Shown: positions 1 through 33,496 of the stretch, in pieces
How the letters are laid out: the number at the start of each line of letters is the position of its first letter
How positions within the stretch are numbered: position 1 is the stretch's first letter
NCBI GenBank assembly: GCA_963728565.1
Contig: CAVSLC010000010.1
Coordinates: 64,001 to 128,000 of the forward strand
Direction: 5' to 3'
Source of the DNA: an uncultured delta proteobacterium
GTDB lineage: Bacteria > Desulfobacterota > Binatia > UBA9968
DNA length: 64,000 nucleotides
The notes under the pieces: model-generated
What the model saw: the letters and a program-made list of their open reading frames with translations, nothing else
What the model was told of the DNA's origin: nothing
Database searches by the model: none
Program-made: the position numbers and the translations under genes

Positions 1-2
1 TC

Positions 3-1379
3 GGTCGAACCGTCCGCGAAATAAATCCTAGCATCGCCGGCGCGGTCGAAACAGTGTGCCGGGAATTGATAGTTACAGGAAAACCTCGTCTCAATGTTCA
101 GATGATAGGCGAGACTGGCGCGCAACCCGGTGTCAAGGGAACATGGCTAAACAGCTATTTCCCATTAAAGGATCTAAATGGCGAGTGTATCGGGGTCAAT
201 GTAGTGATTCAGGATCTCACCGATCAAAAACAACTGGAAGCGAGATTGCGCGAGGCTGACAAACGGAAGGACAAGTTTTTAGCCGTACTCGGGCATGAGT
301 GGCGCAATCCTTTAGGCGTCATCATCAATGCCTTTGAGATGCTGCCCGTTTCGGATACACCGGAAGCGCGAGAAATCAGGGCTATCATCAAGCGGCAGAT
401 CACTCGCATGACACATCTTACTAACGACCTGCTCGACGTTTCGCGGATCTCAGCCGGGCAGATTGAAATTGATAAACAGTCCTGCGATTTCGCGGCGATT
501 GTGCGCGAAGCAGCGGAGGACTATCGAGGGATCCTAGGCTCCGTCGGCATCCGCCTCGCGCTGCAGCTGCCGCAGGATCCTGTCTGGGTCCTAGGGGATT
601 GCAGACGTTTGGGACAGGCGGTTGGAAATCTCTTGCACAATAGCCAGAAGTTCACGCCACCGGGACGGCACGGTGACCATGACCCTAGCCATCGTTCCGA
701 ATCAAGAAACAGCTGTTCTCAAGGTTCGTGATACCGGGATCGGCATGGATGAGAGCACGCTGACCCGATTGTTCGAGCCATTCAGCCAGGTATTGCGAAC
801 TTTCGATCGTAGCCGCGGCGGACTCGGCTTGGGTCTGACTTTAGTCAAGGCATTCATTGAAATGCACGGTGGGACGGTATCGGCGAGCAGTAAGGGACCT
901 GGAAAGGGTTCAGAGTTCATCGTTCGGTTGCCGGTCCAGAGGGATCCTACCGCGCCGCGCGATCCCAATCCTGAATCGAGCGCTTCTCAATCGAAGGATC
1001 CAATCTCATGCCGTGTTCTCATTATCGACGACAATCAGGTTGGAGCTCGAGCCATGCAATTGTTCCTTCAAGATGCTGGCCACCTGGTCGAGATAGCCCA
1101 TAACGGAGTCGAAGCGTTCGTGATCGCGAGAAACCTGAGACCCGATGTCGTGCTCTGCGACATTGCGCTACCCTGGATGGATGGCTACGCGATTGCGCGG
1201 ACGATCCGGCAAGACGCCCAGCTCAAAAATGTTTATCTGATCGCGATCTCGGGGTACGCACAGGACGAGGACCAGCAATTGGCGAAACAGGCCGGTTTTG
1301 ACGAATACTGCGTCAAGCCGGTTGATCTAAAATCCTCGACCGGATGATAAAGAATAGTCTGTGTGCTCGGCCGCGCTAG
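3..1379 (+). CDS. Hybrid sensor histidine kinase/response regulator (PAS-HisKA-HATPase-REC), 5'-truncated by the window, frameshifted
   Basis: Frame is open from the left edge (GRTVREINP, PAS-like). H-box GHEWRNPL, N-box NLLHNSQKFT, then +1 shift near 665 into VRDTGIGM, GGLGLGL and the REC domain (IIDD, DIALP, KP). Adding one A near 1330 would extend the C-terminus (ILDRMIKN) to TAG at 1379. Confidence 0.9.
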
Positions 1380-19184: not shown

Positions 19185-20039
19185 CTACACTGATAACCGA
19201 AAGGTAAATTCATGTGAGCGATCTTCACTGGTTTTTCCGCGGGTCTGGTCGTTCACGTATCGATATTTCGACAGTGGGAATTTGCGAGAGGGGACGACCG
19301 GCCAGGCAACTACTTCCTGGAGCCGCGCGAAGTGAGCCAACGGTCTTTGTTCCGGTAGCTCGATTCCGGTCGACTGCGTCATCGTGTTCACGTCCAACTT
19401 CACTTCGGCATGTTGGAGAGCCCAGGGGGGATGATGAATCTCGCCAAAAACCACTCGATCCGGATTCAATGCGGTGAACAGGCAGTACCTCTCGGTGAGC
19501 CAATAATCGAGCGTGCCTGGAGTAGCTCGATACATCGGTCCGGCAGGCGCATAATCGGCGCGGAACTCCGCGCGTGCAGAGTTCTTGTGCTTGCGGACGC
19601 TGTCATAACGAATAATGTCCGCGACAGATTCGACTTTCATGCGCGCGTCGTAATAGGGCAAGCCAAGCCACCGCGCCACTCTAACGGCAACCCAACTCGC
19701 CGCATCGAGACTGAAAAACCATACGCCGCTTTTCCCCGCTGTTTTTACATAGGTTCGGACGTTGAGCTCCGCTAATGACAGTGGCAGCGGAACGTAACGG
19801 GGCCTAACGCCACTCATGTGGAACGGAACGATTCCGATCCAGGACCATCCGTCAAAGGTATCGAGCTCGACCGCTTTGGGGATCAGCGGTCTGATGTATT
19901 CAGGTCGAATCGGCCAATGAAGGAACAGCACATCATGCCAGCGCATGAACATCACCCAGGGGGATTTTGGTAGCGGCCAAGGCCGGTGCGAAGATTGGTC
20001 CGTCACCGGCGGCAGGCGCAAACTGCAACTCGAACTCAT
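19185..20039 (-). CDS. DUF2071 (YqjF) family protein
   Basis: WHDVLFLHW, ELNVRTYV, GVWFFSLDA and WLTERYCL. Confidence 0.9.
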   Translation of the reverse strand: MSSSCSLRLPPVTDQSSHRPWPLPKSPWVMFMRWHDVLFLHWPIRPEYIRPLIPKAVELDTFDGWSWIGIVPFHMSGVRPRYVPLPLSLAELNVRTYVKTAGKSGVWFFSLDAASWVAVRVARWLGLPYYDARMKVESVADIIRYDSVRKHKNSARAEFRADYAPAGPMYRATPGTLDYWLTERYCLFTALNPDRVVFGEIHHPPWALQHAEVKLDVNTMTQSTGIELPEQRPLAHFARLQEVVAWPVVPSRKFPLSKYRYVNDQTRGKTSEDRSHEFTFRLSV

Positions 20040-20142
20040 TGTAGTTGCGCCCGCTGCGAACGCGCCATCAATAACTCCCGTCGATTCACAGCTTGGAAGG
20101 TCATAGGGCTGGTAACGCCACGGCGCGTTGATCGGTGAACAT

Positions 20143-20904
20143 TTACTCGCGCGCATCAGTCGCGCCGGCGCTTGCGCCGATGATCCGATCGGTAATCCAC
20201 TGTAGTAGGAATGATGTAGAAGTTCGCTGCCACGACACGTCGGATAGGCCGTGATCTGCGTCTTTAATCAAACGATGCGTTACCGACCGTGCCCGGGTGA
20301 AAGCGGCCAAGTAATTAGCGATCACCGGATGCGGCACGGTATTGTCCCGCTCGGACTCGACGATCAGCACATCACCGGGAAACGCCGCGCACGCGCGCAG
20401 CGCCCGATTTTCCTCCGGAGCCACGGCCCGCCTGCGGTATGCGCAAAAGTCCGGATCTTCATGAAGCTTGCGCTTGGGCAACTCCCAGCCGGCATCGTTG
20501 TAGAGGGCCGGCGCGCGCAGCGCGACCCAGCGCACCGCTCGCCGAGAGGTCATTATGGCTGCGAGATACGCGCCATAACTGCTGCCGACAACTCCTAGAT
20601 CTGTGGGGTCCAAGCCAGGTTGGCTCGCCAATACATCATAGGCGGCCAAGAGGTCCCTTAGATTGTCTTCACGCGAAACGACCTCTCGTTGTCCATCGCT
20701 ACGCGCGTGACCGCGCAGATCGAAGGTCAAGCAGATAAAACCCAGCTCGGCGACGGCGCGCGCCCGATTGAGGTATTGCTGTTGATTGCCGCCCCAGCCG
20801 TGGACAAACAGCACGGCGGGTCCCGCGCTGACGCCGGCGATCAGCCGGCCCTCGATCCGTTGATCGTCAACCGCGATCTCGATCGGTTCATCATGAATTG
20901 TCAT
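20143..20904 (-). CDS. Alpha/beta hydrolase (S9-like)
   Basis: FVHGWGG, GSSYG nucleophile elbow, D(NTVP) and ADHGL; overlaps the DUF3182 stop. Confidence 0.9.
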   Translation of the reverse strand: MTIHDEPIEIAVDDQRIEGRLIAGVSAGPAVLFVHGWGGNQQQYLNRARAVAELGFICLTFDLRGHARSDGQREVVSREDNLRDLLAAYDVLASQPGLDPTDLGVVGSSYGAYLAAIMTSRRAVRWVALRAPALYNDAGWELPKRKLHEDPDFCAYRRRAVAPEENRALRACAAFPGDVLIVESERDNTVPHPVIANYLAAFTRARSVTHRLIKDADHGLSDVSWQRTSTSFLLQWITDRIIGASAGATDARE

Positions 20905-22039
20905 ACGGCTTGACCTGAGAATATTTGGTGATCGGTCCGACCCGATCATCGATTCCACGGAAATACACCACCGCATCCGGCGGCGCTTGGTTATCGCCAT
21001 AGACTTCGACACATGCTGCGCGCACCGCGCATAGGCTCGGGTCTGCGCGAAAAGCTTCAAGGGCGGCAATCTCCGCAGCGCTGGCACCGCCGATGCGCCA
21101 AGATTGTTCGAGTACGCCGCACGAGCGGCGCCCGTCATCTGCGACGACCTGAGCAACATCGTAGTTGCGCCGGGAGGCTAGCCATCCCGCAAAGGCCCGT
21201 GACGCGGCGGCTTCGTAGGTGCGCGCGTTGTTTATCGCCCATCGCGCCTGTGGCGGCAGCTCGAGTCTGAGCAGATCATCGTAGTCGCCGCGCACTACAA
21301 TTAAATCCGAGCCGCCGTAAACTGTGACGTCGCGGTTGTCTCTGGTCAACAACTGCCTGCCATAGTAGGTCGCCAACAGGTCCGCTACAGAAGTCTGGCC
21401 GACGCTGTAGGTTTCAATCCGATCGAAATTTTGTTCGATCACCGCCCCATAAAGGGCGAGTTCCGCTGGATCGATGTTGTCGAGAAGCGCCTCCAGATCC
21501 GCAGCGGACGTGATCACGGTCTGGCCGCGCCCGCCGATGCCACACGCCGGTTTAAAACGGGCGCGGCCGCGCGCCAGCACCCGTGCCGTTGCGAGGCGCA
21601 GGTCAGCAGGTGCGAATGCGGAAAAGCCAAAAAGAACCACACCCTGAACGCTGCGCGCGAACTCATCTGACCAACCTTCGGGAGCGAACGCGTCGCTCGA
21701 CACTAACGGGTGTGTGATGGTTTTGGTTGCAGCGAACGGATACGGAACGACGCCGCCAAACAAGTCATGATGATCGCGAATACCGAGTTTTCGGATTGAC
21801 TCAGATCCTGTGAGAGTGTCACTCGGAACGAAATACAACGGACCGGCGTAGCGGCGCGCCGCGTCGTAATCTCCGGCGAACTCATAATCCTTCAATGCCG
21901 CGAGCTTTGCCGCAATCATCGAGCGTGTGACGCTCTCGTGTTGAGCCGGCGGCTCGCAGGCACGTTCGGTATATTGAACCACTGCGCCTCGCGGGCACGA
22001 CGAACGAGTCCCGATGTCATCTTTTGTGAGAATCGTCAT
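20891..22039 (-). CDS. DUF3182 family ATP-grasp-like protein
   Basis: LFGGVVPYPFAATKTITHPL, KPACGIGGRGQ, SRRNYDV and LEQSWRIGGAS. Confidence 0.85.
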   Translation of the reverse strand: MTILTKDDIGTRSSCPRGAVVQYTERACEPPAQHESVTRSMIAAKLAALKDYEFAGDYDAARRYAGPLYFVPSDTLTGSESIRKLGIRDHHDLFGGVVPYPFAATKTITHPLVSSDAFAPEGWSDEFARSVQGVVLFGFSAFAPADLRLATARVLARGRARFKPACGIGGRGQTVITSAADLEALLDNIDPAELALYGAVIEQNFDRIETYSVGQTSVADLLATYYGRQLLTRDNRDVTVYGGSDLIVVRGDYDDLLRLELPPQARWAINNARTYEAAASRAFAGWLASRRNYDVAQVVADDGRRSCGVLEQSWRIGGASAAEIAALEAFRADPSLCAVRAACVEVYGDNQAPPDAVVYFRGIDDRVGPITKYSQVKPYDNS

Positions 22040-22629: not shown

Positions 22630-23743
22630 ATGGCTAGAATCCTCATCACCGGCGGAGCTGGATTTATTGGATCTCATTTAGCCGACGAGCTTCTGCACCA
22701 TGGTCATGCCGTCAAAGTACTTCGATCTCCTGTGCTCGCAAGTGCATGGCGCGGGAAAGCAAACGCCTGAATATTTGAATTCTGGTGTCGAACTCGTGCT
22801 TGGCGATGTGCGCGACCGCGCTGCGGTTCAGCGGGCGTTGCAGGGAGTTGACGCGGTCTATCATTTTGCCGCGGCGGTCGGCGTCGGCCAGAGCATGTAC
22901 GAGATCGAGCATTATGCCAGTATCAACGATATCGGCACCGCGGTGCTCCTCGAAGCGCTCATCAAACGTCCAGTCGAACGGCTGATCGTCGCGTCGAGTA
23001 TGAGCGTCTACGGCGAAGGACTTTATCGTTCGCGCCGTGGAAATATTCATAGTGCCGTCGAGCGCAGCCCGACGCAGCTGCGTTCCGCTCGTTGGGATCC
23101 GTTGGATGACGAAGGCGCGGCTCTAGAACCGATCCCCACGCCGGAGACCAAGACGCCGGCGCTCAGTTCGGTTTATGCGCTGTCGAAGTATGTTCAGGAA
23201 CGGATGTGCCTGATGATCGGCCGCGCCTACAATATTTCCACCGTCGCCCTGCGTTTTTTCAACGTGTACGGACCACGCCAGGCGCTATCGAACCCGTATA
23301 CCGGTGTTCTGGCAATTTTCGCCTCTCGTTTGCTCAACGGCAAAGCGCCACTGATTTTTGAGGATGGCGAACAACAACGGGACTTCGTCAATGTCAGAGA
23401 TGTGGTGCAGGCCTGCCGATTGTCTCTCGACGCCGCGGCAGCGCCGGACAACGTTTTCAACATCGGCAGCGGTCAGGCCTTTACTATTTCCGAGTTAGCT
23501 GAACGGATGGCCGACGCACTCGGGAAAAATCTCGAGCCGCAAATCACCGGTAAATATCGCATGGGTGACATACGCCACTGTTTTGCCGATATCGCGCTTG
23601 CCAGGTCGATCCTCGGCTACGCACCCCGGGTAGCGCTCGAAGATGGTGTCATGGAGCTTGCCGAGTGGCTCGAAGGGCAGATTGCCAACGATCACGTCGA
23701 TAGCGCCAGCGCCGAACTGGCAGCTCGAGGATTGACTCTGTGA
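22630..23743 (+). CDS. NAD-dependent epimerase/dehydratase, frameshifted near 22722
   Basis: [16 protein letters not shown] starts at 22630 in a frame missed by the track, then continues [15 protein letters not shown] and NPYTGV. Confidence 0.92.
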
Positions 23744-25932
23744 AGAAGGCGAGGGCCGGTCGAAACGGAGCGGCAGGCATCAAGGCAGATGTCTGCAAGC
23801 ATCCCAGTTTGCGCGCCCAAATCGCCGAAGCCGACAGTGGCGCCGGCGTCCGGATCGGAGTCGTCGAAAGCTTTCGCATCGGCGATCGCGCCGGGGTGGA
23901 AAACGTTCTTGCCGATCTACACGCATTGAGAGTCGCCGACCTCCGTACCACGATATCGTGGGCCGATTGGGACAGCGCCGAAGGCGCAGCCTGGTACAGC
24001 TGGCTCTTGCCGTATTTAGCTAGGCAAGTGAATGTGATTCCGTGCGTGCTCTACACGCCGTTATCGCAGGCGGTGGCGCCGCGTGTGTCCGCGCCGCCTT
24101 GGGATCCCAAGGCCTACGGCGACTTTATCGACGTGCTGATCACCCGTTTGGGCAGCTGTTTTGAATGGATCGAGCTATGGAACGAGCCCGATCGATTGAG
24201 CGAATGGGATCGCACCCTCGATCCGCACTGGCAAACATTCTGCGCCATGATCGGCGGCGCCGCTTATTGGGCGCAGCGCCGCGGCAAGCGCACATTGCTT
24301 GCCGGGCTCAATGCGTTCGACCCTAACTGGCTCGAATTGATGTTCCGGCGCGGCGTGATGCAGTACATCGATGCCGTCGGCATCCATGGATTTCCGGGCA
24401 CCTCTGAAGCCAATTGGGAGAGTTGGCCGGGGGTGGTTCAGAGCGTGCAGCAGATTTTGACGCAGCACCGTTCCGGCGCTGAAATCTGGATCAGCGCCAC
24501 CGGATATTCCACTTGGCGCCACGACGAGTACGAGCAATTGCGCGCCTTCGCCCGGGCTCTGGAAGCGCCGGTGGAGCGACTTTACTGGCTCGGGGCGCGC
24601 GATCTCGACCCGGAATTTTCCACACGCGATGGCTTTCATGCCGACGATCGGGATTATCATTTCGGGCTGCGCCGCAGCGACGGTAGCGAGAAATTACTGG
24701 CGCGACTGTGGGGTGAGGGCGGACTGGACGCGGTCTGTGAAGCGCTCGAACCGCATTCGGGCGCGCGCCGCAGCGCCGCCAAGCCGACACAACCGGTGGT
24801 CATCACCGGCGGCGCCGGTTTTATCGGCACCAATTTGGCGCATCGCCTGGCGAGCGACGGCGAGCGGGTTTTGGTGTTCGATAACTTGTCACGCCCAGGT
24901 GTTGAGCGCAATTTGAGATGGTTGTTGGAAACCCACGCAAAGCGAGTCCAGGTGGAGTTTGCCGACGTGCGCAATCCTTACGCGCTGCGCCGCGCGGTGC
25001 GTAATGCCAAACAGGTATTTCATTTCGCGGCGCAAGTCGCGGTCACCACCAGCTTGGCCAACCCGCGCCACGATTTTGACGTCAACGCGCTTGGAACACT
25101 CAACTTGCTCGAAGCGTTACGCGGCGCCGATGACCCGGCGCCGCTAATATTTACCTCGACCAATAAAGTCTATGGCGGCCTGGACGATGTCCGACTGAGC
25201 TGTGAAGAAGGCGCTTATCACCCGCTCGATCCGTTTTTGCGCGAGCATGGGATCAACGAATCGCGGCCGCTGGATCTGCACAGCCCTTACGGCTGCTCCA
25301 AGGGAGCCGCCGACGAGTACGTCATCGACTACGCCCGAACCTTCGGACTCCCTGCGGCGGTGTTTCGCATGAGCTGCATCTATGGCCCGCATCAAATGGG
25401 CAACGAAGATCAGGGATGGGTGGCGCACTTCTTAATCTGCGCGCTCGAAGACCGCCCGCTGACGCTCTACGGCGACGGCATGCAGGTGCGTGACGTGCTT
25501 TATATCGACGACTTGGTAGAAGCCTTTTTGGCGGCGCGCTCGCAGATGCGCAACATTTCCGGGCAGGCTTTCAACATGGGCGGCGGGCCGCGGCGCGCGC
25601 TGAGCCTTTTAGAGCTCATCGACATGATCGTCGAGCTTCATGGCGAAAGCCCGGCCTGCGAAAGCAGCGACTGGCGCGCCGGAGACCAGCGTTACTATGT
25701 TTCCGATACCCGCAAGTTTCAGAACGCAACCGGTTGGGCGCCGCGCGTCGATCCCGAAGAAGGCGTGCAGAAACTTTATGAATGGTTGCGCCGCGCCCGC
25801 GGCCTGGAACAAGTTCGCGCTCTCGGCGGCGCCTCCCGCAACGGCTCGTTCAGACGGAAAACTGGAATGAGAAGCGGCCTGGTCGCGCAAGATCGACAAG
25901 AACGAGCGGGCAAGGCCTCGCAGCCCTATTGA
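23740..25932 (+). CDS. Fusion of a clan-A glycoside hydrolase-like barrel and a CDP-paratose 2-epimerase-like SDR
   Basis: N-terminal LRTTISWAD, WNEPD and GIHGFPG; C-terminal [25 protein letters not shown] and PYGCSK. Confidence 0.88.
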   Translation: MKKARAGRNGAAGIKADVCKHPSLRAQIAEADSGAGVRIGVVESFRIGDRAGVENVLADLHALRVADLRTTISWADWDSAEGAAWYSWLLPYLARQVNVIPCVLYTPLSQAVAPRVSAPPWDPKAYGDFIDVLITRLGSCFEWIELWNEPDRLSEWDRTLDPHWQTFCAMIGGAAYWAQRRGKRTLLAGLNAFDPNWLELMFRRGVMQYIDAVGIHGFPGTSEANWESWPGVVQSVQQILTQHRSGAEIWISATGYSTWRHDEYEQLRAFARALEAPVERLYWLGARDLDPEFSTRDGFHADDRDYHFGLRRSDGSEKLLARLWGEGGLDAVCEALEPHSGARRSAAKPTQPVVITGGAGFIGTNLAHRLASDGERVLVFDNLSRPGVERNLRWLLETHAKRVQVEFADVRNPYALRRAVRNAKQVFHFAAQVAVTTSLANPRHDFDVNALGTLNLLEALRGADDPAPLIFTSTNKVYGGLDDVRLSCEEGAYHPLDPFLREHGINESRPLDLHSPYGCSKGAADEYVIDYARTFGLPAAVFRMSCIYGPHQMGNEDQGWVAHFLICALEDRPLTLYGDGMQVRDVLYIDDLVEAFLAARSQMRNISGQAFNMGGGPRRALSLLELIDMIVELHGESPACESSDWRAGDQRYYVSDTRKFQNATGWAPRVDPEEGVQKLYEWLRRARGLEQVRALGGASRNGSFRRKTGMRSGLVAQDRQERAGKASQPY

Positions 25933-25935
25933 CCC

Positions 25936-26940
25936 ATGACGCTCGACCATTCTAATCGCCGGACCATGCGCGCGGCACGAATCGTCGCGCCGCGGCAGGT
26001 CGAAATCGATGAAATCGCGGTGCCCGAACCGGGTGCCGGCGAAGTGCGGATTCAAGTGGATGGTTGCGGCGTCTGCGGATCGAACTTATCGCTGTGGCGC
26101 GGCCAGCCCTGGTTTCACTACCCGATCGAACCGGGCGCGCCCGGTCACGAGGGATGGGGGCGGGTTGATCAGGTCGGGGAGCAGGTCGATAGCGTCCGGC
26201 CCGGAGAGCGGGTTGCATTCGTATCCAACCGAGCTTACGCCGAGTACGACATCGCCCGCGCCGACAGCCTGGTGCGCGTTCCTGCAAGCACTGAAATATT
26301 CCCGGGCGAGGCATTGGGCTGCGCGATGAATATTTTTCAGCGCTGCGGCATCGAGCCGGAGCAGACGGTCGCGGTTGTCGGGATCGGATTTTTGGGCGCG
26401 CTCCTGATCCAGCTTGCGGTTGCTGCGGGCGCGCAGGTTCTCGCTATTTCGCGCCGCCCGTTCGCGTTGCAGGTGGCGCGCCGCTACGGCGCTGCAGAGG
26501 CGCTGGCTAGTAGCGATTCGACGGCGGTGATTGCGCGGATCATGGAACGGACCGATGGATCGGGCTGCCCGCGTGTCATCGAAGCCGCCGGCCAGCAGGA
26601 GACGCTCGACCTGGCAAGCGAGCTCGTCGGTATTCGCGGCCGGCTGGTGATTGCGGGCTATCATCAGGACGCGCCGCGCCGGGTGAATATGCAGCTTTGG
26701 AACTGGCGCGGCATCGATGTCATCAACGCTCACGAGCGCGATCCGGGCCGCTATGTCGCAGGGATGAAAGCGGCGGCCGAGCGGGTGGCGCAAGGGGCGC
26801 TGAAGACCGAATCTCTCTACACTCACGGTTTTCCACTCGAGAACATCAGCGCCGCATTTGCCGCGCTCGACGAGCGGCCGGAAGGATTTCTAAAAGCATG
26901 GATACAACCGCGCCCCAATCAGGCGAGCGTCCAAGAATGA
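25936..26940 (+). CDS. Zinc-binding (MDR) dehydrogenase
   Basis: CGVCGS, GHEGWG and VVGIGFLG. Confidence 0.9.
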
Positions 26941-28061
26941 GCAACAGAAAAGTGAGAGTGGCCGTCATCGGCGTCGGAAACTGCGCCTCGTCCCTGGTTC
27001 AGGGAGTGCAATTTTACAAAAGCGCCGATCCCAATCAATTTGTGCCCGGGCTGATGCACGTGAGCCTGGGCGGCTATCACGTGCGCGATGTCGAATTCAG
27101 CGCCGCGTTCGATATCGATAGCAACAAAGTGGGCAAGGACCTGTCGGAGGCGATTTTCGCCGAACCGAACAACACCTACCGCTTTAGCGATGTGCCGCGC
27201 AGCGGCGTAGAAGTTCGGCGCGGCATGACCCATGACGGTCTCGGCAAATACCTGAGCCAAAAAATCCGCAAGGCGCCGGGCTCGACCAGCGATATCGTCG
27301 GAACGCTGCGTTCCACACGCACTGACGTGGTTGTCTCTTACCTGCCGGTGGGTTCCGAGATGGCGACCAAGTGGTACGTCGAGCAGATCCTCGAAGCCGG
27401 ATGCGCGTTCGTCAATTGCATACCGGTATTCATCGCCTCACAGCCCTATTGGCGCAAGCGCTTTAAAGAACGCGGCCTGCCGATCATCGGCGACGACATC
27501 AAATCGCAACTCGGCGCGACGATTACGCACCGGATGCTGGCGAACCTGTTTCGCGAGCGCGGCGTACGCCTGGACCGAACCTATCAACTGAATTTCGGCG
27601 GCAACACCGACTTCCTCAACATGCTCGAACGCGAGCGGCTGGAATCGAAAAAAATTTCCAAAACCAACGCGGTGACCAGCCAGCTCGATTACCCGATGTC
27701 GAGCGATGATGCGCATGTCGGTCCGAGCGACTACGTGCCGTGGCTGCACGACCGCAAGTGGTGCTACATCCGCTTGGAAGGCACCACCTTCGGCAACGTG
27801 CCGCTCAACTGCGAGGTGAAGCTCGAAGTTTGGGATTCGCCCAATTCTGCGGGCGTCGTGATCGACGCGGTGCGCTGCGCCAAACTGGCCCTCGACCGCG
27901 GTATGGGCGGCGCCGTGATCGGCCCGTCGAGTTACTTTATGAAATCGCCGCCGCAGCAATTTACCGATAATGAAGCGCGCGAGCGCACCGAAGCATTCAT
28001 TCGCAATCATCAATCGACGACCGTCAGAGCAACGCCGCGGCCGGTCAGAAAGCGAGCTTGA
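26937..28061 (+). CDS. ino1: Myo-inositol-1-phosphate synthase
   Basis: [39 protein letters not shown] and VWDSPNSAG. Confidence 0.95.
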
Positions 28062-28120
28062 CGACGCCGCATGAGCGAATCCTCAAGCGTGCGATCCGGA
28101 ATACTGGGAATGGCGGAGAC

Positions 28121-29245
28121 ATGAAGCTGGTTATTTTTGGCCTGACGATCAGCTCGTCTTGGGGCAACGGCCATGCTACGGTTTGGCGCGGCTTGTGTCG
28201 GGAGTTGGCGCGCCTGGGGCACCAGGTGATTTTTTTCGAAAAGAACGTTGCCTATTATGCGGCGCACCGCGATTTTCACGACATTCCCGGCGGCAAGCTC
28301 ATTCTTTATGAGACCTGGAGCGAAGCGCTCTCCCACGCCCGGCAGCATCTGGCCGATGCGGAGGTGGCGATCGTCACGTCCTATTGCCCCGACGGGATGG
28401 CCGCTACCGAGGTCGTTGTCAGCTCGCGGCCGTTGAGGGTCTTCTATGATCTCGACACCCCGGTGACTTTGGAACGGATCGCAGCCGGCCATGGCGTCGG
28501 TTACATCGGCGCTTCGGGATTGCGCGATTTTGACATCGTCTTGAGTTTTACCGGCGGGCGCGCGCTGCTGGACCTCCGGAGCCGGCTCGGCGCCAAGCGG
28601 GCGGTGGCGCTTTACGGCAGTGTTGATCCCGCTGTCCATCGACCGGTAATGGCGCGGGAAAGCTACCGCGCCGACTTGTCGTATATCGGCACTTACGCCG
28701 ATGATCGCCAAGCAATGCTCGACGCGCTCTTTCTCGAGCCGGCGCGGCGCCTGCCGGAGCGGCGTTTTTTAATCGCCGGAGCGCAATACCCGCCGGCCTT
28801 CGCTTGGCTGCAAAACCTTTTTTTCGTGCGCCACATCGCGCCGCCGGATCATCCGGCGCTTTACTCGTCATCACGCCTGACTCTCAACGTCACCCGTCGC
28901 GCCATGGCGCAGTCAGGCTATTGCCCGTCCGGGCGACTCTTCGAAGCTGCGGCATGCGGCACGCCCATCGTCACCGACTGTTGGGCCGGTCTGGAAAGCT
29001 TTTTTCAACCGGGCGAAGAGATCCTCGTAGCGACTCAAACTGCCGATGTTATGGCAGCGTTGGAATTGAGCGATGATCAACTGGCGCGCATTGCCGGGCG
29101 CGCGCGGCAACGCGCTATCGAGGAGCATTGCGCCGCCAGAAGGGCGCGGCAACTCGAAGCCATCCTCGATAGCGTTGCGGCTGATGGGCCGGAGCCGCTT
29201 GCGGGCGCAGCAGAAAATTGCCGTGTCCTGCGGGGAGAAGCCTGA
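28121..29245 (+). CDS. CgeB family glycosyltransferase
   Basis: GLTISSSWGNGHAT, YDLDTP and RLFEAAACG. Confidence 0.9.
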   Translation: MKLVIFGLTISSSWGNGHATVWRGLCRELARLGHQVIFFEKNVAYYAAHRDFHDIPGGKLILYETWSEALSHARQHLADAEVAIVTSYCPDGMAATEVVVSSRPLRVFYDLDTPVTLERIAAGHGVGYIGASGLRDFDIVLSFTGGRALLDLRSRLGAKRAVALYGSVDPAVHRPVMARESYRADLSYIGTYADDRQAMLDALFLEPARRLPERRFLIAGAQYPPAFAWLQNLFFVRHIAPPDHPALYSSSRLTLNVTRRAMAQSGYCPSGRLFEAAACGTPIVTDCWAGLESFFQPGEEILVATQTADVMAALELSDDQLARIAGRARQRAIEEHCAARRARQLEAILDSVAADGPEPLAGAAENCRVLRGEA

Positions 29246-29247
29246 GA

Positions 29248-30003
29248 ATGTGGGGAATCATTCCGGCCGCCGGTGCCGGCCGCCGAATTCAACCGCTGGC
29301 GTTTTCTAAAGAACTGCTGCCGGTAGGGAGCCGCTTCGATGGCGAGACCGAGCGGCCTCGGGCGGTCAGCGAATACATTATGGAACGCATGGTTCGGGCC
29401 GGCGCCAGCCGAATCTGCTTCATTATCTCGCCCGGCAAATGTGACATTCTCGAATACTACGGCGCCAGCTTCGGGCCTGCGCGTTTGTGTTATGTTGTGC
29501 AGCCCCAGGCGTCGGGTTTGTGCGACGCGCTGTTCTGCGCGCTGCCGCTAATCGGCGCCGATGACCCGGTGATGATCGGCCTGCCCGATACCATCTGGTT
29601 TCCAGAAGATGGTTTCTGCTCACTACCGCGCGATGCTTTAGCGTTTCTGCTTTTTCCCGTGAGCCGTCCAGAATTGTTCGACGCCGTTCTGACCGACGAA
29701 GTGGGTCGCGTGCGCCAGATTCGGGTCAAGTCGCGTGAGCCGTTATCGCAGTGGGTGTGGGGCGCCTTCCAGATGCCCGGTTCTGTCATGATCAAGCTGC
29801 ATGAGTTGTGGTGCCGGCGCGGTCGCGCCGACGAGTACGTAGGCACTCTGGTCAATGCCTATCTCGGCGAAGGCGGTCAGGCATGGGGCATCCGCGCCGG
29901 CAGCGCTTATGTCGATGTTGGCACTCTGTACGGTTACCGGGAAGCGATCCGGCTGCTCAGCGGTTCCGAGCAGCGCTCAGAACTTCAGGAGATCAAAGCG
30001 TGA
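29248..30003 (+). CDS. Sugar-phosphate nucleotidyltransferase
   Basis: IIPAAGAGRRIQPLAFSKELLP and YVDVGT. Confidence 0.9.
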   Translation: MWGIIPAAGAGRRIQPLAFSKELLPVGSRFDGETERPRAVSEYIMERMVRAGASRICFIISPGKCDILEYYGASFGPARLCYVVQPQASGLCDALFCALPLIGADDPVMIGLPDTIWFPEDGFCSLPRDALAFLLFPVSRPELFDAVLTDEVGRVRQIRVKSREPLSQWVWGAFQMPGSVMIKLHELWCRRGRADEYVGTLVNAYLGEGGQAWGIRAGSAYVDVGTLYGYREAIRLLSGSEQRSELQEIKA

Positions 30004-30779
30004 ATCGGCTTGCGGTTCCTCGGCGGAAGATGACCCGCGATGAAATCGAAACTCAAGTGCGCCGGCTCGGCCCCTGGTTTCACAACCTCGATCTGGCGGG
30101 CGTGCAGACCGCCCCGGAGCATTTTCTTGGAGATTACCCGCGCGTGAAGTGGCAACGCTTTGCCCACGCGATCCCCGACAATCTCGCGGACAAAACGGTT
30201 CTCGACATCGGTTGCAATGGCGGCTTTTACTCCATCGAGATGAAACGCCGTGGCGCGGCGCGGGTGGTCGGCATCGATTCGGACGATGACTATTTGCTTC
30301 AGGCGCGCCTGGCCGCGGAGATCTGCGGCGTTGACATCGAGCTCCGCAAGCTTTCGGTCTACGATGTCGGCGCGCTGGCGGAGAAGTTCGATGTCGTGCT
30401 CTTCATGGGCGTTCTCTATCATCTGCGCCACCCGCTGCTGGCTCTGGATTTGATTCGCCGACATGTGGCCAAGGATTTGTTCGTCTTTCAATCGATGCAA
30501 CGTGGCAGCAATGAAGTCGCCTCTCTGGAGGACGACTATGAATTCTGGAACGAGGATATTTTCGAGAAGCCCGGGTTCCCGCGCTTGTGCTTCATCGAAA
30601 AAAAATACTCCGGCGATCCGACCAACTGGTGGGTGCCCAATCGCGCCTGCAGCGAGGCGATGCTGCGCAGCGCCGGTTTCACCATCGAAGCCAATCCCGA
30701 AGCCGAAGTGTACGTCTGCCGGTGCGCGGCAATCACTGCTGGCGGCCGTCACTGGCCCGGCGAAATAAAGGAGCCCTAA
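30000..30779 (+). CDS. TIGR04290-family SAM methyltransferase
   Basis: GPWFHNLDL, TAPEHFLGDYP, LDIGCNGG, GVLYHLRHP and DPTNWW. Confidence 0.9.
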   Translation: MNRLAVPRRKMTRDEIETQVRRLGPWFHNLDLAGVQTAPEHFLGDYPRVKWQRFAHAIPDNLADKTVLDIGCNGGFYSIEMKRRGAARVVGIDSDDDYLLQARLAAEICGVDIELRKLSVYDVGALAEKFDVVLFMGVLYHLRHPLLALDLIRRHVAKDLFVFQSMQRGSNEVASLEDDYEFWNEDIFEKPGFPRLCFIEKKYSGDPTNWWVPNRACSEAMLRSAGFTIEANPEAEVYVCRCAAITAGGRHWPGEIKEP

Positions 30780-31810
30780 TGGTCGAAGCGGTAATGTTTT
30801 GGAACGAGCCTAACAACAAATCACATTGGGATTTTTCGCTCGATCCGGAGTGGCGTGTCTATGGCGAAATGGTCAAGCTGGCGGCGGCCGCCGTAACGGC
30901 TGAAAATCCCCGGCTTGTCCGGGTGCTCGGCGGCATTTCTCCCATAGACGCCGCTTTCATCCTCAATATGCAGTCACAGCACGTGCTCGAAAGTCTCGAC
31001 GCAGTGGCGGTTCATGGTTTTCCGCTGGATTGGAATCACTGGAATATTCATGAGTGGCCGGCAAAGCTCGATGAGATTCGCGCGGTGACGGATTTGCCGA
31101 TCTGGGTTTCAGAAGTCGGCGTCTCGAGCTTCGGCGCCGAAGAAGTTCAGGAGTGGGGCTTGCAGCGCACCGCCGATCTGCTGATCGGCCGCGCCCCGCG
31201 GATACACTGGTATAGCCTTTATGATCTGCCGCGCGCGTGGCCGGCCACGACACGCCATCGCGAGGCCGAGGGCTCATCATACTACCGCCACTTTTACATG
31301 GGACTGCTTCATGAGGACGGCACGCCCAAGCTGGCGCTCAAACATTTTCCGCCGTACACGCCCGAGCTCGGCATCTGCCAATGGTTTCATTTCGAGGATT
31401 ACCGGCTGGATCAAGCGGTGCGCTGGCTGCGCACACTGAATGTTCGTTATCTACGTACCGGCTTGAGCTGGTCAGACAGCCTGCGCCCGGGAGCCATGGA
31501 ATGGTTTGACCGGCAGATGCGCGCTCTCGAGGAGTTCGATGTCACTTTGACGATGTGCTTTACGCCGGAATCGCGCGGGGTCCAGCCGCACCATACCAGC
31601 CCGCCGCAGCGCGCCGAGGAGTTCGCCGATTTCTGCGCGCGTATGGTGCATCGTTACAGCTCGGCAGCAACGGCAACGAATGAATCGACCAGAAAGAAAT
31701 CCACTGCGGAGGGTGACTCATGGCCAGTAGAAGCCAATCCAGAACCGCCACCGACCACGACGAAATCCGTCAATGGGTCGAAGCCCGCGGCGGACGCCCC
31801 GCGGTCGTGA
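30779..31810 (+). CDS. Clan-A glycoside hydrolase ('beta-xylosidase'-like), circularly permuted
   Basis: FWNEPNN at the N-terminus, WVSEVG nucleophile, and LRTGLSWSD in the C-terminal third. Confidence 0.85.
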
Positions 31811-32802: not shown

Positions 32803-33496
32803 ATGATGATCTTCTTCGATATCGATCAGACCCTGATTGACCAGCGGAAAGCCGAGGCCGCAGCGGCGCGCGAGTTGCTGGCGGTCTATCACGACTCACT
32901 GGGTCGAAATTATTCGGTGGTCAGCTTCTGCCGGATTTGGGATTTCTTGCGCGACAAGCATGCGCGCGCGTTTTTCGCCGGCGTCATTACCAGCCAAGAG
33001 CAGCGCCGGTTGCGAGTGCGCGAGCTGTTCGGTCGCATCGGTTGGGAACTCTCCGATCGCGAAGCCGATGACTGCTTTGCGCTCTACGAGCGGCACTATC
33101 GCCGGCACTGGACTCTGTTTGACGACGTGCTGCCTTGCCTGCACGGCGTTATCGCAGCACCCGATCGGCATCATTTCCAACGGCAGCGCCGAGCACCAAA
33201 GGCGCAAGCTGGCAGAAACCGGCATCGCGGCTTTCTTTGCGGTGACCGTGGTGTCACAGGAAGTGGGCGCCGCTAAGCCACATCCTGATATTTTTCGCGC
33301 TGCCTGCCGAATCGCCGGCTGTGCGGCCGAACAATCGATCTATGTCGGCGATCGCCTCCATGTCGATGCGCTGGCGAGCCAGGCAGCGGGCATGCGGGGC
33401 GTTTGGCTCGATCGACGGCGCACGCAACGCCCGGCGGCAGTGCAGGTGGTCAGTTCATTGACCGAGCTCTGCGCCGAGTTATGTGACGCGCCATGA
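32803..33496 (+). CDS. HAD family hydrolase, frameshifted near 33142
   Basis: FDIDQTL motif I; ISNG, KPHPDIF and VGDRLHVD after the shift. Confidence 0.9.

Follow-up and report, generated by a model that had tools for sequence, protein, structure and literature searches.

How does a single sugar-metabolism cluster come to encode two glycoside-hydrolase barrels in which the same conserved blocks occur in opposite order? The question is raised by 64,000 nt of contig CAVSLC010000010.1 (positions 64,001-128,000), from an uncultured delta proteobacterium (Binatia UBA9968; assembly GCA_963728565.1). We refer to this whole stretch as the window, and all coordinates are positions within it. A preliminary description had singled out two of its genes, 23740-25932 (protein A) and 30779-31810 (protein B), and proposed that B is a natural circular permutation of a (beta/alpha)8 barrel of glycoside hydrolase (GH) clan A, kept alongside its unpermuted paralog A, possibly as a heteromer. 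Our results bear out the first of these proposals. Sequence, profile, predicted-structure, and tree evidence agree, and we conclude that, compared with A's barrel and every other relative, B is a clan GH-A barrel that has undergone natural circular permutation, the cut being the short loop between helix 3 and strand 4 of the ancestral barrel. Taking both proteins together, we consider it quite likely that B is a permuted, active barrel of the PslG/GH39-like retaining-glycosidase type that arose once, that A's barrel is a selected paralog without a nucleophile, and that there is roughly one competent barrel per cluster.

Both barrels have PslG from Pseudomonas aeruginosa (PDB 5bx9, 4zn2, 9g17) as their closest solved relative. 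Relative to PslG, to A, and to a stand-alone barrel of normal strand order (P0192), gene B is laid out as follows.

30779..31810, + strand: gene B, circularly permuted PslG-like clan GH-A barrel, 343 aa (from the open reading frame, or ORF, its translation, and an AlphaFold2 model)
30767..30773, + strand: Shine-Dalgarno sequence AAAGGAG, 5 nt ahead of B's ATG (read from the sequence)
30779..31333, + strand: residues 1-185, canonical strands 4 to 8 (aligns with A142-319, P0192 111-293, and PslG chain 156-356)
30806-30808, + strand: acid/base E10, in FWNEPN (N-E-P motif, end of strand 4)
31112-31114, + strand: nucleophile E112, in IWVSEVG (aligns with the PslG Glu of IWSTEWG, end of strand 7)
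31334..31366, + strand: residues 186-196, 11-residue linker from the old C terminus to the old N terminus (between the two aligned blocks)
31367..31660, + strand: residues 197-294, canonical strands 1 to 3 plus helix 3 (aligns with A39-140 and P0192 10-109; segment hidden Markov model, or HMM, 5e-24)
31661..31807, + strand: residues 295-343, variable low-complexity tail (predicted local distance difference test, or pLDDT, below 50 at 297-323 and 325-340; absent or unalignable in most family members)

The swapped order is evident at several levels of sequence comparison. Every motif quoted in the preliminary description was found in the translations where it had been placed: in A they run GVVESF, LRTTISWAD, YTP, SAPP, YGDF and then WNEPD, HGFP, IWIS, FGL, and B starts with FWNEPNN, HGFP, IWVSE, MGL. 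Local alignment of the two proteins with BLASTP, the check suggested at that time, returned two significant pieces whose order is exchanged between the proteins: residues 142-319 of A pair with 3-185 of B (27% identity, E 1e-17), and residues 39-140 of A with 197-296 of B (25% identity, E 6e-7). The second piece is the one on which the proposal hinged, namely a match between the C-terminal third of B and the N-terminal segment of A, and it recurred at 5e-24 with a segment HMM. A comparison of the A and B family profiles with hhalign reported just its top block (180 columns, probability 100%). For the second block we turned to segment HMMs built solely from normal-order sequences, both A-type and stand-alone. 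The HMM for strands 4 to 8 matched B3-191 at 5.6e-45, and that for strand 1 to helix 3 matched B195-296 at the value just given. Applied to a labelled set, these HMMs placed the C-block before the N-block in 21 of 21 permuted sequences and the N-block before the C-block in all 35 others.

The cleanest comparison is with P0192 (318 aa). Residues 1-185 of B align with its residues 111-293 (40% identity, E 2e-40) and residues 197-294 with its residues 10-109 (38% identity, E 2e-18), so that the blocks meet at 109/111 with nothing duplicated. With the compact model described below, B against P0192 thus has two significant blocks that are swapped, do not overlap, and belong to one domain, as is characteristic of circular permutation. 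When the B-family profile was run against the PslG sequence, two swapped stretches met at 130/132 (whole-sequence E 2.5e-7), the N-block stretch being weak by itself (9 bits). A family profile was needed for this; as a single sequence, B gave chance-level matches only (E 0.22-0.4) against PDB sequences.

Predicted structures follow the same pattern. We modeled B with AlphaFold2 on a 30-sequence alignment and, for A, the first 351 residues. The A model is a barrel (mean pLDDT 85.7) that is colinear with PslG across its whole length (Z 27.6-28.0 over 299-305 residues, model 32..351 to chain 37..431), and it matched GH39-like, GH1, and GH39 chains at Z 24-28 over 280-305 residues. The B model, in contrast, matched PslG over its first part only (model 1..195/219 to chain 156..356, Z 12.4-12.5), with a root-mean-square deviation of 2.2-2.3 over 175 residues and 21% identity. 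Such a difference is expected of a permutation. Whole-length matches of the B model were generic barrels at 5-11% identity, drawn from a Foldseek-seeded list and a search of 48,161 PDB representatives; the best was a designed triosephosphate isomerase (TIM) barrel (Z 13.6, 10% identity), followed by GH20/GH84 enzymes and epimerases. No GH-A-like chain was colinear with all of B among the 48,161 representatives, although a weak or missing match in such a search does not prove absence.

The permuted architecture is not peculiar to the window. The B family comprises at least 8000 significant matches, the best 120 of which share 71-95% identity and are mostly 290-345 aa long. In a collection with one genome per species, at least 588 species genomes encode a B relative (588 of 600 pattern matches). 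Among 80 genome loci that we kept, identity to B was 96% in Binatia and 62-78% in other groups, which include Myxococcota (with Sorangium), Acidobacteriota, Verrucomicrobiota, Gemmatimonadota, Nitrospirota, Planctomycetota, Bacteroidota, Armatimonadota, and Alpha-, Beta-, and Gammaproteobacteria. Aligned members begin with M-x-E-A-x-x-x-W-N-E-P and finish shortly after R-R-Y. The start of B at 30779 is well supported, since its ATG overlaps the TAA stop of the upstream methyltransferase gene (30777-30779) by one base (TAATG), a Shine-Dalgarno sequence lies ahead of it, and the same start point is found in all 29 aligned family members, bar one without the first five residues. The gene's setting is also recurrent: in 74 genome loci with at least 1 kb of upstream sequence, the neighbor within 400 bp was a TIGR04290-type methyltransferase in 48, a nucleotidyltransferase in 10, and an inositol-phosphate synthase in 9.

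The catalytic residues of B are retained throughout its family. In 121 sequences including the window, the acid/base column holds Glu in 118, the other three being N-terminally cut, and the nucleophile column holds Glu in 121 of 121. By a numbering offset of 26 between entry numbering and sequence index, E10 and E112 of B fall on E165 and E276 of PslG, and an E165Q/E276Q variant of that enzyme is described as catalytically inactive (bioRxiv 10.1101/032714). Of the features that define clan GH-A, B therefore has the barrel fold, the strand-4 acid/base Glu, and the strand-7 nucleophile Glu, and it departs from the clan in strand order. As for GH39, its model PF01229 is absent from the Pfam matches, and the B profile reached GH39 beta-xylosidase chains at only E 0.015-0.75, compared with its 2.5e-7 match to PslG. 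The name "beta-xylosidase" that the family carries at the Joint Genome Institute (JGI) is an automatic label.

Some longer members of the family join B to other domains. The permuted barrel is fused to an LmbE-type deacetylase (PF02585) in seven proteins from other metagenomes (P0394-P0398, P0401, P0402), to a methyltransferase in P0399 and P0404, and to a PF04230 pyruvyl-transferase-like domain in P0400. These fusions hint at N-acetyl-sugar substrates and at a close working link with the methyltransferase. One 616-aa candidate for a double barrel (P0406) proved to be a frameshifted read-through and was rejected.

Where did the permuted form come from? An exhaustive search of 1.84 billion representatives yielded 1192 matches at E <=0.001, among them stand-alone relatives in which the strands run from 1 to 8, unlike in B (P0192, P0207, P0241, P0246, P0260, P0269, P0270); a gene of genome G038 is another such relative. 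These proteins are about 310-340 aa long, carry both catalytic Glu, and are 35-41% identical to B; the G038 gene lies in the same slot as B, after the methyltransferase. Six further representatives of 50% clusters (P0160, P0201, P0124, P0134, P0142, P0137) were frameshifted junk and were not used. The designation of A as the unpermuted paralog of B is thus correct insofar as A is a normal-order homolog; it is a distant one (27% identity), and the nearest normal-order relatives of B are the stand-alone proteins.

The phylogeny points to a single event. We aligned the two blocks separately, concatenated them in canonical order (57 rows, 288 columns), and built a tree with IQ-TREE, using as outgroup a third GH-A barrel from the window's own genome (L004 1405-2553, - strand, contig C7) and omitting one barrel remnant (L006) as too degenerate for the main tree. 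The 21 permuted sequences formed one clade (ultrafast bootstrap 100, Shimodaira-Hasegawa-like approximate likelihood ratio test [SH-aLRT] 99), recovered in 100% of 200 bootstrap trees. The 27 A-type fused barrels formed a separate clade (98/91), and eight stand-alone normal-order proteins were paraphyletic around the two. Furthermore, in G038, a genome of the same class, the gene that follows the methyltransferase encodes a normal-order barrel with both Glu, and in G081 the same slot is taken by the permuted form. This comparison, along with the single clade, implies that the slot gene underwent the permutation a single time, its ancestors there having been stand-alone proteins of normal order.

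Branch lengths in this tree are uneven. They are 0.05-0.2 in the core permuted clade, despite its spread across many phyla, versus 0.6-1.4 in the normal-order relatives; short branches of this kind reflect either exceptional constraint or a recent spread through gene transfer. The outgroup protein itself (382 aa, with YNEQN and IWINEMG motifs and a hydrophobic N-terminal stretch) is unrelated to the cluster and is probably exported.

The second question is what the normal-order barrel of A does beside an intact permuted relative. Its features are the following.

23740..25932, + strand: gene A, normal-order barrel fused to a short-chain dehydrogenase/reductase (SDR) epimerase domain, 730 aa (ORF; the GTG start overlaps the upstream SDR stop, GTGA)
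23848..24717, + strand: residues 37-326, canonical-order PslG-like barrel (model colinear with PslG)
24184-24186, + strand: acid/base E149, kept, in LWNEPD (catalytic column alignment)
24190-24192, + strand: Asp151, in place of the usual Asn (NEPD signature)
24496-24498, + strand: Ala253 at the nucleophile position, IWISATG (catalytic column alignment)
24796..25794, + strand: residues 353-685, extended SDR domain, CDP-tyvelose 2-epimerase-like (PF01370, E 4.9e-48)

The closest solved chains to the C-terminal domain of A are those of CDP-tyvelose 2-epimerase (PDB 9rl0, E 3.3e-86; 1orr, E 4.4e-82). At 340-347 residues, these differ from A in being about the size of the epimerase domain alone and so carry no N-terminal barrel. 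Relatives of A numbered 1046 at E <=0.001; the best 120 are mostly 650-745 aa and carry epimerase Pfam domains. In the window's own phylum, A's barrel was matched in 3 of 151 genomes, a rarity that fits a patchy, transferred cluster. The barrel is an unannotated domain of A and has no PF11790 match.

In this family the nucleophile is frequently missing. Across 121 sequences including the window, the acid/base column holds Glu in 114, and the nucleophile column holds Glu in 66, Ala in 34, Ser in 14, Asp in 5, and Gln in 2. The losses are patterned. Specifically, the acid/base Glu is retained in 47 of the 48 members with Ala or Ser, and all 48 have NEPD, compared with NEPN in 97% of the 66 Glu-type members. 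The new Asp beside the acid/base might be relevant to a changed chemistry. Two milder clade-specific changes accompany NEPD, a Glu-to-Asp replacement near residue 49 and an Ala-to-Gly replacement near residue 127. A's barrel thus has the canonical strand order of clan GH-A and lacks its strand-7 nucleophile Glu; it has the fold of the clan yet should not be classed as a standard retaining hydrolase.

Loss of a nucleophile might mean that the barrel of A is a relic in decay, rendered superfluous by B and devoid of any function of its own. Besides the 48 of 121 family members that have lost this residue, one locus holds only a degenerate barrel remnant upstream of the epimerase (L006) and another has lost both catalytic residues (L043), in favor of this view. 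We consider this explanation unlikely, given how the remaining sequence has evolved. Among six nucleophile-less genes, the ratio of nonsynonymous to synonymous substitution rates (dN/dS) was 0.06-0.20 in the barrel and 0.05-0.195 in the epimerase domain, in comparisons where dS (0.85-1.7) is near saturation, and mean pairwise identity was 72% and 75%, respectively. The acid/base Glu has been kept in all but one of the Ala/Ser members, a fixed Asn-to-Asp change goes with nucleophile loss, and the barrel of A is modeled with confidence. A's nucleophile-less barrel is under purifying selection, not decaying. Since selection persists after the loss of the nucleophile, the barrel is probably no longer a retaining hydrolase and keeps a selected role.

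One such role would be structural. The preliminary description suggested a heteromer, in which A's normal-order barrel would be the regular noncatalytic partner of permuted B, and this would be compatible with the presence of both genes in one cluster here and in two other loci (L089, L095), with purifying selection on a barrel that lacks its nucleophile, and with the coincidence of nucleophile loss and presence of B. The distribution of the genes lends the suggestion no support. An ortholog of A's epimerase domain (>=50% identity) is found in 24 of the 80 B-bearing genome loci. In 17 of them there is no room for a barrel, an upstream SDR gene abutting the epimerase ortholog at 15-73 bp; L006 has its remnant, the barrel of L043 is truncated where the locus ends, and five are cut and cannot be judged. 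The reverse comparison gave a similar result. The 80 metagenome loci that we fetched with an A-barrel alignment contained 80 normal-order barrels, 70 flagged as fused to an epimerase, and permuted B was downstream in only L089 and L095, both closely related to the window and likewise with Ala in place of the nucleophile. When only loci with >=6 kb of downstream sequence were counted, B accompanied Ala-type A in 2 of 2 and a second barrel accompanied Glu-type A in 0 of 25, judged within a flank of about 9 kb only; the Glu-type loci lacked one even where 1.6-2.7 kb of sequence follows the methyltransferase. Accordingly, A and B are kept together in the window, as first described, but elsewhere this is the exception (17 versus 2 of 24; 0 of 25). 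Because each mostly occurs alone, neither protein needs the other in general. Nor was there a fusion of an A barrel to B among 27 longer matches, even though fusions of B to LmbE and methyltransferase domains do occur. A complex prediction for A35-340 with B1-297 scored 0.00 in two runs (mark 0.32), but it was run without controls and counts neither for nor against binding. On balance, we regard a regular heteromer as improbable, marginally more so than the relic.

The same loci suggest a different relationship between the two barrels. In addition to the Ala-type loci, L043 independently lost both catalytic residues (LWNRPS, IWITATG) and carries B, whereas its sister L103 (99 SH-aLRT) keeps the Glu and has no B. 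It seems that a cluster requires one competent barrel and that the fused barrel, in the company of B, tends to lose its catalytic residues. This link between nucleophile loss and B is a hint from the gene content of these loci, a pattern worth testing and not a result.

Two further explanations concern B itself. Its swapped halves could belong to something other than a single closed barrel, such as a domain-swapped dimer with another B chain or two half-barrel pieces, and it is true that the closed monomer rests on prediction. The prediction, however, is of one compact domain (mean pLDDT 85.5, 243 residues at >=90) with eight strands (2-7, 47-53, 75-80, 108-113, 142-145, 197-200, 224-230, 254-260), a last helix at 279-294, and a disordered tail at 297-343. 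The linker region is predicted with particular confidence, the 10-residue blocks covering 181-200 having mean pLDDT of 97 and 98, and linker length is conserved across the B family. We therefore give an open or split B little credence, somewhat less than the heteromer. Finally, an artefact of assembly or gene calling, for which one could cite a draft genome (80.6% complete, 5.8% contamination) and two neighboring genes that look frameshifted, has a negligible chance of explaining the swapped order, as the same architecture, start, and end run through the family of at least 8000 matches, recur in 80 of 80 genome loci (including complete Sorangium chromosomes and isolates of Variovorax, Azospirillum, and Hymenobacter), and appear in contigs from four independent public runs.

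How would a permuted barrel remain an enzyme? The chain of B would run from strand 4, which carries E10 in the NEP motif, to strand 7 with E112 and on to strand 8, and then cross the 11-residue linker into strands 1-3 and helix 3. The loop between helix 3 and strand 4 of TIM barrels lies on the face away from the active site, a matter of general geometry and not a measurement on our model. With the cut in that loop, the active site should be rebuilt unchanged. Given that both catalytic Glu are kept throughout its family, we infer that B is a working enzyme. Neither A nor B has a signal peptide-like start, and judging from its sequence and gene context, B would be a cytoplasmic glycosidase or transglycosidase of a widespread soluble sugar-assembly cluster.

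Comparison with better-known systems suggests what B may do there. PslG, an endoglycosidase, has the same NEP acid/base and strand-7 Glu as B, and it too is a hydrolase encoded inside a sugar-polymer cluster, that of the Psl exopolysaccharide. There are also differences. The strands of PslG are in normal order, and B matches it in one run only over strands 4-8, with strands 1-3 placed at B's C terminus; identity is 17-21%; B has no signal sequence or extra domain, and A has no nucleophile. A second parallel, which is one of role only, is with MmpH, an endomannosidase of the mycobacterial 3-O-methylmannose polysaccharide pathway. MmpH is reported to cut the polymer into primers for new chains and to belong to a cytoplasmic cluster with a glycosyltransferase and methyltransferases (PMC9883506). 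By analogy, MmpH could provide a working model for a glycosidase kept beside a methyltransferase in a soluble sugar cluster, and B may trim or re-prime the cluster's glycan as PslG and MmpH suggest.

For A, the steps would be different. In this lineage the nucleophile Glu of its barrel has been replaced by Ala and an Asp gained after the NEP motif, leaving a domain that may hold glycan for the fused epimerase or may have acquired a changed chemistry. It is conceivable that the two proteins divide the work, with B cutting glycan and A's barrel acting as a selected nonhydrolytic domain (holding glycan for the 2-epimerase, or serving as a glycosynthase-like or inverting catalyst), possibly in contact with B. 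We advance this division of work tentatively and think it more doubtful than probable, although it fares better than the relic or the heteromer. If true, it would represent a natural glycosidase that was re-purposed after a permuted paralog took over its job.

Several observations weigh against the joint reading of a singly arisen, active B and a selected, nucleophile-less A. B is under the gathering cut-off of the Pfam model PF11790 Glyco_hydro_cc (17.6 versus 21 bits, over residues 3-121 only), and it has no match to any NCBIfam model. The closed barrels of both A and B are AlphaFold2 predictions. Among the 27 longer matches there was no double barrel and no tandem-duplicate or split intermediate from which the route of the permutation could be read. 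The root of the tree depends on a single outgroup branch of great length (3.9 changes per column), and PslG and other GH-A chains colinear with A, all in normal order, make the better argument for the direction of change. The near-saturated dS tempers the evidence for selection on A's barrel, just as the 9-kb flank tempers the absence of second barrels. As for one competent barrel per cluster, nucleophile loss and B are linked by only two independent contrasts, which agree in direction (sign test p 0.5), and there is a counter-example: L085 (G038:C31:364000-383000) contains the whole cluster, with an A-type fusion that has both Glu plus a second normal-order barrel in the slot.

Few enzyme barrels have undergone natural circular permutation, and those that have help to reveal how a fold withstands rewiring. 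Among glycoside hydrolases, the textbook example of a (beta/alpha)8 barrel permuted relative to a sister family is that of the GH70 glucansucrases versus GH13, which differ from B in belonging to clan GH-H, of alpha-amylase type, and in being large multidomain extracellular enzymes. The permutation of B lies in clan GH-A, the largest glycosidase clan, for which we know of no circular permutation. No description of it was found in the literature, with subscription journals being mostly outside coverage. The sole match for a circularly permuted GH39, a review, concerned a reference to PgaB, a CE4 esterase, and was discarded.

Our findings bring to light a very large and highly conserved family, with 70-78% identity from phylum to phylum, that is missed by current Pfam and NCBIfam models and labeled "beta-xylosidase" by pipelines. 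With normal-order relatives in the same gene slot, the states before and after the permutation can be compared directly. What is new here is the pairing of the permutant with a nucleophile-less, normal-order paralog, along with the NEPD signature and the hint of one competent barrel per cluster. A's barrel is a candidate for a natural pseudo-glycosidase or a re-purposed barrel. More practically, knowing which barrel is active tells which protein to use for probing the product of the cluster.

The cluster itself is a co-directional set of soluble sugar-metabolism genes that spans 22.6-39.6 kb of the window. In order, it encodes an SDR epimerase, A, a zinc alcohol dehydrogenase, an inositol-3-phosphate synthase, a CgeB-like glycosyltransferase (PF13524), a nucleotidyltransferase, the TIGR04290 methyltransferase, B, a GNAT protein, a HAD hydrolase, a histidine phosphatase, a GFO/IDH/MocA oxidoreductase, a GT4 glycosyltransferase, and three further PF13524 glycosyltransferases, which brings the CgeB-like glycosyltransferases to four. 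An NDP-sugar enzyme set is thus part of the cluster. The inositol-3-phosphate synthase matches TIGR03450 at E 3.6e-165, yet falls under the cut-off of that model. The usual upstream neighbor of B has the following coordinates.

30030..30779, + strand: TIGR04290-family methyltransferase (381.7 bits versus a cut-off of 300)

A literature search found no publication on TIGR04290. Contigs from RNA libraries of three soil studies cover A's barrel and bridge the junction between the methyltransferase gene and B at about 93-97% likeness; they attest the presence of close relatives only, not transcript ends or levels.

Two genes of the cluster appear to be broken. The first SDR gene (22630-23743) looks frameshifted, with its Rossmann N terminus in a short frame (22630-22770) and the remainder of the protein in another (22682/22700 to 23743), which is either a real break or an error of the draft assembly. 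The HAD-type hydrolase gene (32803-33496) is split across two overlapping frames, one (32803-33276) containing the N-terminal DxD motif region and the other (32837-33496) the C-terminal HAD domain (PF13419, residues 107-190). Upstream on the opposite strand (19185-22039, - strand) are genes for a DUF2071 protein, an alpha/beta hydrolase, and a DUF3182 protein (PF11379, E 1.4e-137), uncharacterized families beside the cluster. Lastly, the summed contig depth over the inositol-3-phosphate synthase gene (27250-27789) rises to 1262, compared with about 20-80 elsewhere, in all four runs and with many loose ends. This peak most likely represents copies of a conserved gene from many organisms piling up at one place.

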